This document shows, piece after piece, positions 48,670 through 53,275 of a stretch of 64,000 nt of DNA (the first letter of the stretch is position 1; each line of letters starts with the position of its first letter). The notes beneath the pieces were generated by a model. The model was given only the letters and a program-made list of their open reading frames with translations, was not told the DNA's origin and ran no database searches. The stretch is from Pseudomonadota bacterium (GTDB lineage Bacteria > Pseudomonadota > Alphaproteobacteria > Caulobacterales > Hyphomonadaceae). Location of the stretch: the NCBI GenBank assembly GCA_039028055.1, contig JBCCIW010000001.1, positions 1,166-65,165 of the forward strand, read 5' to 3'. Position numbers and translations under genes: made by a program.

Positions 48670-49863
48670 TTAGCTCTGCTGCACTTCTCGCACTAGATCG
48701 GGCATGTGCTCGGCAATCAAAGCGTATGTCAACTGTTCGCCACGCTTGCTGAGTTTCTCGATCCACTCGTCTGGCATCGCAGAGAAATCGGTAGGATATC
48801 CATGTGCGTCTTCTCGTGATACAAGATCCGATGGCGGAAAGGCGAGGCGGGAGTCATCCTGCCCAAGGAAGGGCATGGCAAACCCCTTGATCTGTCCAGA
48901 GGACTTTAAATCGAACAGACGCTTCACTGCCGCGTTCTGAGCTCTATCAAAGATGCAAGTGAACGTGCTTGTAAGCCGCGCCATGAAAAATTGGCTGGGC
49001 GGATCAAATCGCAAACCGTAACCCGCGCGGCAGCAGATGATCGTGTCCACGCCAGAAACGTTCAGGCTTATCGAAGAGTCCCGATCAGGCCAAAGCGGCG
49101 CAAGGCCCAAATTGTCGTATGCCCCGCCGTCGGTTAGGGTGACATGCTCCTCGCGCCGCGATCCGTCGGGTTTGTTGAAAGCGAGACGTTCATCAAGCGC
49201 CGGCAGAAACAGCGGATATGCCGCGGAAGCCATGACTGCGTGCGCAAGAGTCGTCTGTGAACCGGCAAGTTCCCCAAGACGCCATGATCCGGACTTCTCT
49301 CGCGAAAAATAGAACGCCGAACCTGTGCGCAAATCCGCAGCATTGATAATCAGAAGTGGGCGCGTCGCGGGCAATTCTCGCAACTTCAGTCCGTGAAAGA
49401 CATTTTCGTCCAAAACCCTACGTAGGATCGTCGTCCTGCTCGCGAAACGCGGCAGCGGTGCGCGCAACTTGTCGAAGCTCCAGCGTTTACGCGCTGTCGG
49501 TGGCAGCAGCACCGAGAGGAGGCGCGGTCCGGTCGCGATCGCCAAGATTGCGAGGTTGATCACCCCAAGAAGGGTAGCACAATATATCGCACGCAGGCCT
49601 TCGGTGGTCGTGAACACCTTGCGCAAGGCCGGGCGCACCAAGCCAGAGGAAAGCAACGAACGCACCTTCGCCTCGAAGACTTGAAACGGTTCGTCATTAG
49701 CCGCATAAAGTGCGCCAATGACGCTTCCCCCCGATACGGTGGAGATGACCCGTACTTCGTCAAGAATTCCGAGATCATGCAAGGCGCGAAGACAGCCTAG
49801 GTGGAAGGCGATGGCACGGGATCCACCGCCTGAGAGCGAGAGGCCGATGACGGGCTTACTCAT
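48670..49863 (-). CDS. patatin-like phospholipase
   Basis: 397 aa with oxyanion loop LSGGGSRAIA, nucleophile elbow TVSGGS and Asp motif LTDGGAYDNLG. The ATG overlaps the upstream stop (ATGA). Confidence 0.85.
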   Translation of the reverse strand: MSKPVIGLSLSGGGSRAIAFHLGCLRALHDLGILDEVRVISTVSGGSVIGALYAANDEPFQVFEAKVRSLLSSGLVRPALRKVFTTTEGLRAIYCATLLGVINLAILAIATGPRLLSVLLPPTARKRWSFDKLRAPLPRFASRTTILRRVLDENVFHGLKLRELPATRPLLIINAADLRTGSAFYFSREKSGSWRLGELAGSQTTLAHAVMASAAYPLFLPALDERLAFNKPDGSRREEHVTLTDGGAYDNLGLAPLWPDRDSSISLNVSGVDTIICCRAGYGLRFDPPSQFFMARLTSTFTCIFDRAQNAAVKRLFDLKSSGQIKGFAMPFLGQDDSRLAFPPSDLVSREDAHGYPTDFSAMPDEWIEKLSKRGEQLTYALIAEHMPDLVREVQQS

Positions 49864-52145: not shown

Positions 52146-53275
52146 TAACCAGCCCTGGGCGACGCCGCCGCGGCGGTTCCAGCAACCATCGGCGCAGCAA
52201 GCGCAAGGGCGAAACCAAATGCCGTGATCTTGTATGCGAAGGGCTTGGGGTCACTCTTCGACGGGTACTCCATCGTCACGATGAATTCGCCGTCGTGCGC
52301 CACAGTGATCCGACGGTGATAGTTTGCAGCCTGCCGGTGCGGGGGCTGGACGTCCTCGTCGGCCTTCGACCCTTTGACGGGGATCGGCCAGGACGGAGAG
52401 ATGATGTCGCTGCCGGGTTGGCGCTGATCCTCGAACAGCCACTTGACGTCGGGGTCAGGGACGGTCTCGTTCGTGCCACGCTCCGGCCCCAACGACTTGT
52501 AGGAGCAATGGTGCGGCAGCTTCATCAGATCCCAAGCGAGCCTGTCCTCATTGCCGTGCTTCCGGCTAACCTGGACGATCGCAGCCAGCGTCTCGTAATT
52601 GACGTCTGAGGCGAGAAGCAGCCTCGTCTTCTGGCCGCCCTCGACAAAGGTGGCCTGCATGACGATCGAATCCTCGTTGCGATCGACGACAGTGTTTTCA
52701 TCCTGTCGCCAGCCGAACGGGCAGTGCACAAAAAACTCTACCTTCTCTGGTCCAGTCAGTGCGTACCCAGGCACGAGTTTGCCAGCATCCACAATCAGGT
52801 GCTTACGGCTTTCGAAGTCGATCCCTTCCACCTCCATCCAGGCCTTCAGCCTTTCGGGACGAGAGAACACTCGAATGCCCTTGCCCTGACGCAAGCGGTA
52901 CCGCGCCTCCGCGCGGACCAACCGTGCATCATCCTTCAAATTCTCTTCAAGGATTGCCGCTGCAGGGACCCAAAGCTCCCTGATCTTCACGCGCCCCTTG
53001 CCTTGGTAGAGCGCAGCATGATCGAGCCAGAAGAAGTCACCGAACCCCTTACAGTGATCGGTATCAGTGTGCGTGATGCAAACCGCATCGAAGTAGTCGC
53101 GGCCTGCCTTATGCAAATCGCGGCGAAGTGTCGCCGGCAAGTCGCAACGCTGGTCATCTTCATCGTCGTCACAACGCATTGCGGCGAAGTCGATCAGGAC
53201 CTTGCGCCCATCGGCAAGGTCGAGGCGGGCGGTGTCGGCATTGCCGAGCGGAAAGAAGTTCACCATAGCCTGCAT
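52145..53275 (-). CDS. metallo-beta-lactamase-fold protein with hydrophobic/Ala-Gly-rich C-terminal tail ending in Gly
   Basis: 376 aa. N-terminal FPLGNADTARLDLADGRKVLIDF and metal motif CITHTDTDHCKGF (HxHxDH-type). It ends ...AGTAAAASPRAG. The stop overlaps the E2-E1-JAB start (TAATG). Confidence 0.8.
   Translation of the reverse strand: MQAMVNFFPLGNADTARLDLADGRKVLIDFAAMRCDDDEDDQRCDLPATLRRDLHKAGRDYFDAVCITHTDTDHCKGFGDFFWLDHAALYQGKGRVKIRELWVPAAAILEENLKDDARLVRAEARYRLRQGKGIRVFSRPERLKAWMEVEGIDFESRKHLIVDAGKLVPGYALTGPEKVEFFVHCPFGWRQDENTVVDRNEDSIVMQATFVEGGQKTRLLLASDVNYETLAAIVQVSRKHGNEDRLAWDLMKLPHHCSYKSLGPERGTNETVPDPDVKWLFEDQRQPGSDIISPSWPIPVKGSKADEDVQPPHRQAANYHRRITVAHDGEFIVTMEYPSKSDPKPFAYKITAFGFALALAAPMVAGTAAAASPRAG

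Follow-up and report, generated by a model that had tools for sequence, protein, structure and literature searches.

The window analysed here, a stretch of 64,000 nucleotides from a Hyphomonadaceae bacterium (assembly GCA_039028055.1, contig JBCCIW010000001.1), carries between positions 48,670 and 53,275 a three-gene operon that, as judged from its sequence, belongs to the 6A-MBL anti-phage system (operon type 6a) and, within it, to a patatin-bearing sub-clade. The first gene encodes a metallo-beta-lactamase (MBL)-fold protein, the second a fusion of E2, E1 and JAB modules and the third a patatin-like phospholipase. Taken as a whole, the locus is most probably explained by this identity combined with conjugation of the MBL protein and a patatin effector. 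The three genes, with their lengths in amino acids (aa), are:

52145-53275, minus strand: MBL-fold metallo-hydrolase gene, 376 aa, first of the core operon, 6A-MBL family
49860-52145, minus strand: E2-E1-JAB triple fusion (6A-MBL cap2_3), 761 aa, second gene
48670-49863, minus strand: patatin-like phospholipase gene, 397 aa, third gene, proposed membrane-lytic effector

The assignment was made with NCBIfam (release 20), where the system comprises two models, both equivalogs. The first protein scores 426.6 bits (cut-off 220) against NF058524 ("anti-phage 6A-MBL system MBL-fold protein"), in a full-length alignment of residues 7-354 to positions 1-346 of the 346 in the model, and the second scores 655.6 bits (cut-off 320) against NF058523 ("anti-phage 6A-MBL system cap2_3 protein"). 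Plasmid versions from Klebsiella and Clostridium match both models as well. In the loci with both genes intact the order is kept, with the MBL gene first and the E2-E1-JAB gene adjacent and co-oriented, as in the window. The operon reported here differs from other 6A-MBL loci in its third, translationally coupled patatin gene, which is without counterpart in the enterobacterial, clostridial and other sister clades, and in a DUF2188 gene that heads the operon in this lineage.

Operons of type 6a were described by Iyer, Burroughs and Aravind 2006 (PMC1779556, Table 1, row 6a) as an E2-E1-JAB triple-module protein beside a specialised metallo-beta-lactamase, "usually with two genes". An earlier sequence-only reading of this DNA had mentioned such operons from comparative-genomic surveys, and rightly so. 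The species list of row 6a includes "Obat" and "Goxy" (PMC1779556). In GenBank the three proteins of the operon follow one another among the entries of a Pseudomonadota metagenome-assembled genome. "Obat" is Pseudooceanicola batsensis HTCC2597 (formerly Oceanicola), in which the operon is 97% identical across all three genes and whose protein OB2597_18097 shares a 90%-identity cluster with the window's. Later papers list 6A-MBL among the validated anti-phage systems related to ubiquitination, with credit to van den Berg et al. 2024; the secondary literature also presents it as a jumbo-phage defence and as a pathway of the Cap2 kind in which the system's own enzyme is conjugated. A passage of PMC11601596 on type II CBASS (cyclic-oligonucleotide-based antiphage signalling system) was also counted among the support for the identity. 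The operon is thus not the uncharacterised, new system that the sequence-only reading had proposed, and the statement that no functional characterisation existed is out of date. That reading had allowed for the trio being already named and characterised; this holds at least for the MBL and E2-E1-JAB core. Because PADLOC-DB 2.0.0 (2023) is without a 6A-MBL model and gives the middle protein CBASS E1-E2 and JAB labels alone, the locus looks there like "CBASS without a cyclase"; pre-2024 tools invite this label, and the value of the present assignment is partly corrective.

The arrangement of the genes was read directly from the sequence. At the junction of the MBL and E2-E1-JAB genes (GGT-TAATG-GAC, at 52145) one base is common to stop and start, and the E2-E1-JAB and patatin genes share a 4-base overlap, ATGA, at 49860-49863 (CGATGAGT). 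The three coupled minus-strand open reading frames (ORFs) reported earlier, with their overlaps, are therefore borne out by the ORF listing and the junctions, and each of the motifs quoted for them was found in the translations. We identified no CD-NTase (cGAS/DncV-like nucleotidyltransferase) or other nucleotidyltransferase in 48.5-53.7 kb using the ORF listing, Pfam, PADLOC and NCBIfam, in agreement with the earlier reading, and no ORF of 48.5-55.3 kb matches a CD-NTase or any other nucleotidyltransferase in the three databases. The sole nucleotidyltransferase of the neighbourhood is AbiEii, which belongs to a separate AbiE module.

The MBL-fold protein and the E2-E1-JAB fusion

The sites and domains identified in the first two proteins are:

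53054-53071, minus strand: MBL motif 2, H69-T-D71-T-D73-H74, an HxDxDH variant of HxHxDH, seen in the translation
52148-52195, minus strand: disordered MBL tail, aa 361-376, ending ...SPRAG, with a predicted local distance difference test score (pLDDT) of ~30; proposed handle for E1 adenylation
51639-51986, minus strand: E2/UBC-like domain, aa 54-169, with Cys114 (codon 51804-51806); Pfam PF14457; motif HQNLTAEGSPRAIC114ID
50346-51080, minus strand: E1 ThiF-like adenylation domain, ~aa 356-600; GGGAIG, DxDxV..NLxRH (VIDDDVLLPHNLARH) and YTGAC549R
49890-50315, minus strand: JAB/JAMM metallopeptidase, ~aa 611-752; E635, H698, H700, S709 and D712; NETGG and HSHP...S..D

The MBL protein has no Pfam match. 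An AlphaFold2 model built from 87 homologues (pLDDT 85.5, predicted template modelling score 0.87) has an MBL fold, with low confidence in the loop 188-200 and the last 16 residues. Searching the PDB with Foldseek, the top match of the model is the beta-lactamase-like nuclease domain of ComEC (9ic4, E 2.7e-14, template modelling score 0.65 on the target), followed by the pneumococcal phosphorylcholine esterase Pce, a phosphodiesterase. The same ComEC entry is the sole sequence-level match in the PDB by phmmer (E 0.0056), and no solved 6A-MBL structure is present in the copy of the PDB that was searched. Among 61 diverged members of the family, H69 and D73 of motif 2 are conserved in 100% and H74 in 98%, whereas residue 71 varies, with D in 89% and H in 10%; of the further metal ligands, H184 is conserved in 93%, D224 in 98%, and H255 and H256 in 95-97%. 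As the ligands are conserved at 89-100%, an intact binuclear metallo-phosphodiesterase or nuclease is predicted. From alignment and model together we infer a ComEC-like enzyme of this kind, with its catalytic site intact, and not a cyclase. The sequence-only reading had asked whether the first gene could be a divergent CD-NTase or another known signal synthase. This was examined with profiles and with AlphaFold2 and Foldseek, and the possibility was rejected, since the protein matches none of these families and has a confidently modelled MBL fold nearest to ComEC.

Compared with the nuclease domain of ComEC/Rec2, which is the closest fold, the MBL protein keeps the binuclear metal site but is only ~17% identical, has HxDxDH where ComEC/Rec2 has HxHxDH, and carries an extra C-terminal subdomain and the conjugation tail. 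Other MBL-fold proteins are known from defence systems: the model of the defence-associated MBL protein Avs1a scores the present protein at 21 bits (cut-off 420), and the MBL of HamMAB is likewise a defence-associated MBL-fold protein.

The end of the MBL protein is a conserved feature of the family, which comprises 751 clusters at E <=0.001 among representatives of 50%-identity clusters. All 120 of the 120 closest homologues have a C-terminal Gly, and nearly all of them end in T-P-[RK]-A-G. Over the wider family, [RK]-x-G occurs within the last 12 residues of 44 of the 56 full-length representatives of 50%-identity clusters, at the exact C-terminus in 23 and followed by 1-7 more residues in 21, compared with 7.7% of control 12-residue windows from the same proteins. 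In CBASS, conservation of the C-terminal Gly/Ala of CD-NTases is limited to operons that encode Cap2 and Cap3; the residue is diagnostic of Cap2 substrates, and Cap3 cuts after it (PMC10097602). By analogy, the P-R-A-G tail would be a ubiquitin-like C-terminus, exposed or masked by a short propeptide, that serves the E1 domain as a handle.

In the 761-aa protein, Pfam identifies Prok-E2_A (PF14457) at 54-169 (2.3e-22), ThiF at 370-483 (1.8e-10) and Prok-JAB at 619-730 (2e-9). PADLOC returns CBASS E1-E2 (5e-26) and JAB (1e-21), and the PDB gives weak sequence matches to Cap2 (7to3/7tsq) and to a JAB peptidase (9ild). The NCBIfam Cap3 model reaches 29.7 against a cut-off of 200. Among 40 family members, which range from alphaproteobacteria to Klebsiella and Clostridium, C549 is invariant (100%) and C114 is found in 97%, no other cysteines are conserved, and the E/H/H/S/D residues of the JAMM motif are kept. 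The earlier assignment of the E2 cysteine to Cys114, of the E1 cysteine to YTGACR and of the JAMM residues is therefore supported, and the domain assignments of that reading (MBL fold, E2, E1, JAB and patatin) are correct by Pfam and by AlphaFold2 with Foldseek.

The patatin gene and the variable membrane-partner slot

The 397-aa product of the third gene matches Pfam PF01734 (1.1e-21, 78.4 bits, cut-off 27.7). Invariant in 67 homologues are the G12-G-G-S-R16 loop (G-G-G-x-R), S44 and D245-G-G. The nucleophile motif is T-V-S44-G-G, with Thr instead of the first Gly of G-x-S-x-G, and D245GGAYDN is present. The AlphaFold2 model (pLDDT 82) has a standard patatin fold with one long additional helix:

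49513-49605, minus strand: hydrophobic helix insert of the patatin, aa 87-117, likely membrane anchor; Kyte-Doolittle 19-residue mean <=2.26; a single helix in the model

Foldseek ranks together PlpD (1.3e-11), the CBASS patatin CapE bound to cyclic UMP-AMP (2.7e-11), plant patatin and AbCapV (2.9e-8), so that the fold is silent on a nucleotide ligand. The PADLOC hidden Markov model (HMM) of CBASS phospholipase effectors matches weakly (E 3.5e-4, over 110 residues).

Scanning one genome per species, we obtained 41 loci with an MBL protein at least ~50% identical to that of the window. They include Rhodobacteraceae, Halomonas, Pseudomonadales, Acidimicrobiales, Skermanella, Xanthobacter, Thalassospira, Longimicrobiales, Acidobacteria, Methylobacterium, Roseomonas and Rubrobacter. 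The loci are distributed as follows:

34 of 41 loci: patatin directly adjoining the MBL/E2-E1-JAB pair
2 of 41 loci: patatin a few kb off, non-adjacent
3 of 41 loci: no patatin, membrane protein in the slot
2 of 41 loci: degenerate

The recurrence of the trio in other genomes, for which the sequence-only reading had suggested a check, is thus found. Of the 34 adjoining patatin genes, 30 follow the pair on its own strand, three precede it and one is convergent. The identity of the patatin declines along with that of the MBL protein (for instance, MBL 74%, patatin 66% and E2-E1-JAB 55%), and the patatin is kept throughout the MBL sub-clade, at identities of at least ~45%. The same trio is present on plasmids of Gluconobacter oxydans (pGOX1, the "Goxy" of the 2006 list), Magnetospirillum and Phaeobacter. 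Sampling in reverse, two of three metagenomic patatin homologues follow an MBL and E2-E1-JAB pair; the third lies among insertion sequence (IS) elements. No fusion of MBL and patatin was found among the over-long representatives of the MBL family, where one short fragment joins MBL and JAB segments and none of the other extensions resembles a member of the query set. The word patatin has 0 occurrences in the 2006 description (PMC1779556), and a search that did not cover the primary 2024 paper on 6A-MBL found no literature combining Cap2, MBL and patatin. We found no description of the three-gene architecture with patatin, of the P-R-A-G tail as a feature of the whole family or of the variable membrane-partner slot (see below), all of them refinements beyond the named core, although they may be contained in that primary paper.

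Outside the sub-clade the neighbour is different. A total of 276 plasmid records carry an MBL homologue, mostly ~27% identical and from Klebsiella, Clostridium, Escherichia and Acinetobacter. None of the sister-clade loci examined (Klebsiella/E. coli, Clostridium, Acinetobacter and others) has a patatin, though they pass the 6A-MBL cut-offs, and in nearly all examined loci without patatin a small multi-pass membrane protein adjoins the pair. A family of 230-270 aa with four transmembrane (TM) segments (4-TM), 21-47% identical, lies upstream or downstream of the pair in Roseomonas, Sagittula, Methylocystis, C. perfringens and C. sporogenes. Klebsiella, E. coli and Vibrio have a 172-aa 2-TM protein and a WYL regulator, Acinetobacter a DUF6338 protein, and a spirochaete and Rhizobium brockwellii other TM proteins. 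Overall, the loci examined in detail have a membrane-associated gene beside the pair, with a single exception; this one, in Rhizobium leguminosarum (L052), is equivocal, with neighbours of <=1 hydrophobic segment.

The 4-TM family was also examined in reverse (54 clusters). One of the four members sampled belongs to a full 6A-MBL operon, with an M78 gene and a small ORF upstream, and three of the four lie directly beside other MBL-fold proteins, with Lactamase_B or weak Avs1a-like matches. These pairs are at 5001-6603 (L060), 3903-5729 (L061) and 3895-5801 (L062), and their MBL proteins, of 294-364 aa, have no C-terminal Gly; no E2-E1-JAB gene is present within the flanks retrieved. They may be a minimal, type I-like module of MBL and membrane protein. 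The occurrence of the 4-TM family beside MBL proteins without E2-E1-JAB suggests, from few loci and by analogy with CBASS, that an MBL-fold enzyme and a membrane-active partner could be a recurrent core to which E2-E1-JAB is a priming add-on.

Proposed mechanism and alternative explanations

The mechanism of 6A-MBL is poorly described in the accessible literature. By homology to Cap2 and Cap3, the E1 domain would adenylate the C-terminal Gly376 on the flexible P-R-A-G tail of the MBL protein, which would be handed as a thioester from Cys549 of E1 to Cys114 of E2 and then ligated to a target, whereby the enzyme would be primed or localised. The JAB domain would undo the linkage and, in the relatives with 1-7 extra tail residues, would first expose the glycine. 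From its linkage to the pair we infer that the patatin, with its own hydrophobic helix, would be the membrane-destroying executor of abortive infection. The CapH-like repressor and CapP-like protease encoded upstream would keep the operon off until DNA damage or infection. Because the MBL and E2-E1-JAB genes are constant while their neighbour switches between patatin and small multi-pass membrane proteins, the favoured coupling would place MBL activity upstream of the membrane effector.

This scheme shares much with type II CBASS, and the parallel drawn earlier with the accessory genes Cap2 and Cap3 and with a patatin effector is correct. Conjugation and its reversal would rest on homologous chemistry, the substrate enzyme ends in a conserved Gly on a flexible tail, effectors are patatins or transmembrane proteins, and CapH/CapP or WYL (CapW-like) regulators lie upstream. 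In contrast to CBASS, there is no CD-NTase, and the conjugated enzyme has a hydrolase fold. As this enzyme is not a nucleotide cyclase, no cyclic-oligonucleotide signal is expected, and the earlier wording that the MBL protein takes the position of the signal-producing CD-NTase holds as an analogy only. In addition, the counterparts of Cap2 and Cap3 are fused here in one polypeptide, and the patatin, which barely matches the CBASS phospholipase HMM and does not appear to be of the CapV/CapE family, has a hydrophobic helix. The Bil/Bub systems (types 6e and related) likewise employ enzymes of the E1, E2 and JAB types, encoded in operons for defence or stress, and conjugate a C-terminal glycine; however, they do so with a separate beta-grasp ubiquitin-like protein, whereas none is encoded here and the enzyme itself bears the tail.

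Several observations weigh against the explanation we prefer. The patatin is without a recognisable ligand-sensing domain and is structurally no nearer to CapV/CapE than to generic patatins; together with the weak match to the effector HMM, this leaves a CBASS-like second-messenger link unsupported. Near the Klebsiella/E. coli, Vibrio and Acinetobacter versions there are small membrane proteins alone, which, with the "usually two genes" of Iyer et al. 2006, means that the MBL protein may itself be the effector. Among the regulators, the block of HTH (helix-turn-helix), M78 and DUF2188 genes is limited to the closest relatives of the operon in the 41-locus scan. The M78 protein of the window, of 189 aa and with Peptidase_M78 as its sole Pfam domain, lacks the HTH and GAF carried by the three-domain Thauera CapP (bioRxiv 10.1101/2022.04.27.489752).

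The 6A-MBL identity would also fit a terminal effector role for the MBL protein itself, as a ComEC-like nuclease that conjugation would prime to break down the nucleic acid of phage or host, with the patatin or membrane gene as an optional second effector, a tether or a conjugation target. We regard this as less probable, but as a substantial rival. The nearest structural relative of the MBL protein, ComEC 9ic4, is indeed a DNA nuclease domain, MBL-fold proteins occur in other defence systems (matches to the Avs1a and RTasMBL models, and HamMAB), the operon was described with two genes in 2006 (PMC1779556) and has two NCBIfam models only, and the enterobacterial versions are without patatin. 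Yet nearly every locus examined in detail, with R. leguminosarum as the equivocal case, has a membrane-associated gene beside the pair, the 4-TM family pairs with unrelated MBL-fold proteins too, and patatin identity tracks MBL identity across phyla, which favours an obligate partner over an optional one. A different arrangement, which appears unlikely to us, would have an MBL-fold phosphodiesterase and a membrane-disrupting partner as the core and E2-E1-JAB as an add-on primer, much as type I stands to type II CBASS, so that the MBL protein would not be a simple nuclease effector; pairs of MBL and membrane protein without E2-E1-JAB would be the possible counterpart of type I CBASS. The MBL protein may then make a non-cyclase, hydrolysis-derived signal for the membrane effector or, by analogy, the P-R-A-G tail may tether it to the membrane (through a lipid, as in Atg8, or through the effector), where it would act on incoming DNA like ComEC. 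Either option, if true, would be an immune signalling or targeting logic so far undescribed.

Two further explanations concern the origin and the use of the operon. It could be a type II CBASS operon in decay, the CD-NTase lost and the MBL gene an unrelated insertion; the middle protein does match CBASS E1-E2/JAB in PADLOC and Cap2/Cap3 in the PDB and NCBIfam, and a patatin is a classic CBASS effector. But the MBL and E2-E1-JAB genes, overlapping or closely spaced, are paired in more than 50 loci of many phyla, both proteins score above the 6A-MBL equivalog cut-offs while the Cap3 model stays far below its own, the MBL protein has the conserved conjugation tail, and no remnant of a CD-NTase was detected among the ORFs or by Pfam, PADLOC or NCBIfam. 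Given the conservation of the pair and the dedicated family models, we rejected this explanation as almost certainly wrong. Somewhat less remote, but still improbable, is that the module serves the mobile element that carries it, in competition with plasmids or integrative and conjugative elements, in entry exclusion, or in addiction through post-segregational killing by the phospholipase. The operon does lie between ArdC/ParB and other cargo on an element with a type IV secretion system (T4SS), a type IV coupling protein (T4CP) and a relaxase, and 189 of the 276 plasmid records with an MBL homologue are typed as conjugative or mobilizable. The family, however, is named and cited as anti-phage, the neighbouring QatABCD and AbiE are defence systems and the regulators are of types known from CBASS; defence and competition between elements are, moreover, not mutually exclusive. 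We retain the 6A-MBL system with a conjugated MBL protein and a patatin effector. The P-R-A-G tail and its propeptide, the recurring phospholipase or membrane neighbour, and the pairs of MBL and membrane protein without E2-E1-JAB provide handles for experiments, and these patterns allow one to ask whether the membrane partner is an executor that depends on MBL catalysis.

Regulators and the surrounding conjugative element

Upstream of the core operon, the following features were identified:

53344-53565, minus strand: DUF2188/PDC-S16 gene, 73 aa, ATG at 53565 behind AAGGAG; DUF2188 3.8e-22, PADLOC PDC-S16 7e-32
53635-53654 and 53696-53715: operator-like repeats, a 20-nt inverted pair with 95% complementarity
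53679-53694: third copy of the operator-like repeat, from a repeat search of the HTH-DUF2188 intergenic region
53727-54044, plus strand: CapH-like HTH (XRE-family) regulator, divergent from the operon; Pfam HTH_3 3.9e-8
54045-54614, plus strand: CapP-like M78 (ImmA/IrrE) metallopeptidase, 189 aa; Peptidase_M78 8e-12, PADLOC capP 7.4e-10

Only in this lineage does the DUF2188 gene head the leftward transcription unit; it is limited to the closest relatives of the operon, plus a fragment in Skermanella (L020). The motif AGTGTTTCACAGACTGGTAT and its complement, 16-20 nt long, occur in three copies within 53635-53715, and these repeats are a plausible candidate for the operator of the CapH-like HTH repressor. 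A promoter scan gave no sigma-70 matches, and terminator-like sites are no more frequent than in shuffled sequence.

The CapH/CapP-like regulators noted in the sequence-only reading are borne out by the PADLOC capP match and by the recurrence of such pairs upstream of "6a" systems (Lau et al. 2022, bioRxiv 10.1101/2022.04.27.489752). In Methylobacterium oxalidis the order is CapP, CapH, hypothetical, metallohydrolase, E2-E1-JAB, hypothetical, so that the upstream position of the regulators is the same here as in that 6a system; the same study reports CapH/CapP-like pairs beside DUF2188 genes, a defence candidate. Across ~47 non-redundant 6A-MBL loci, a divergent M78 gene is present in 14 and a divergent WYL gene, which we read as CapW-like, in 12, and the patatin clade has loci of either type.

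The wider window is a conjugative element of roseobacter type, with a VirB4-like ATPase, T4CP, relaxase and T4SS genes as well as a Strawberry-notch-like helicase, a ParB-like protein and ArdC. Its defence island comprises the 6A-MBL operon, QatABCD and AbiE, which agrees with the defence-island setting proposed earlier. On the Phaeobacter plasmid CP104102 the block M78-HTH-DUF2188-MBL-E2E1JAB-patatin is kept, with different outer neighbours.

QatABCD is complete (55343-60244, minus strand; PADLOC QatD 1.8e-111, QatC 1.7e-179, QatB 4.6e-84), a KAP-family NTPase of 645 aa occupying the position of QatA. It is followed on the plus strand by AbiEi (60269-61204) and AbiEii (61191-62108), a type IV toxin-antitoxin or abortive-infection pair, and by a 423-aa ORF (62105-63376, plus strand) that overlaps AbiEii and has no Pfam match at 1e-5. 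The Phaeobacter plasmid has the same order of AbiEi, AbiEii and a third gene, annotated there as 'nucleotide-binding protein'. Just past the CapP-like gene, an ORF of <=240 aa (54580-55302, plus strand; likely start at an internal MKIGILAWGSL) has no match in Pfam, PADLOC or NCBIfam and is kept between the CapP-like gene and QatD in two other loci (L005, 93%; L008, 62%).

Within the conjugative element, the interval that separates the ArdC gene from the end of the patatin gene holds a tRNA-Met(CAT) and a tRNA-Leu(TAA) gene one base apart (48320-48481, plus strand; Rfam 71 and 59 bits). The pair is conserved at the corresponding position in P. batsensis (L002) and Leisingera (L033) and is absent from the Phaeobacter plasmid with the same defence block; it may mark a hotspot of cargo insertion. 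Clustering in a defence island was also seen on a metagenomic contig (L063), where a Pycsar-type system, composed of a PycTM effector with a guanylate-cyclase-like gene, lies directly downstream of a 6A-MBL operon (9573-10807, minus strand).

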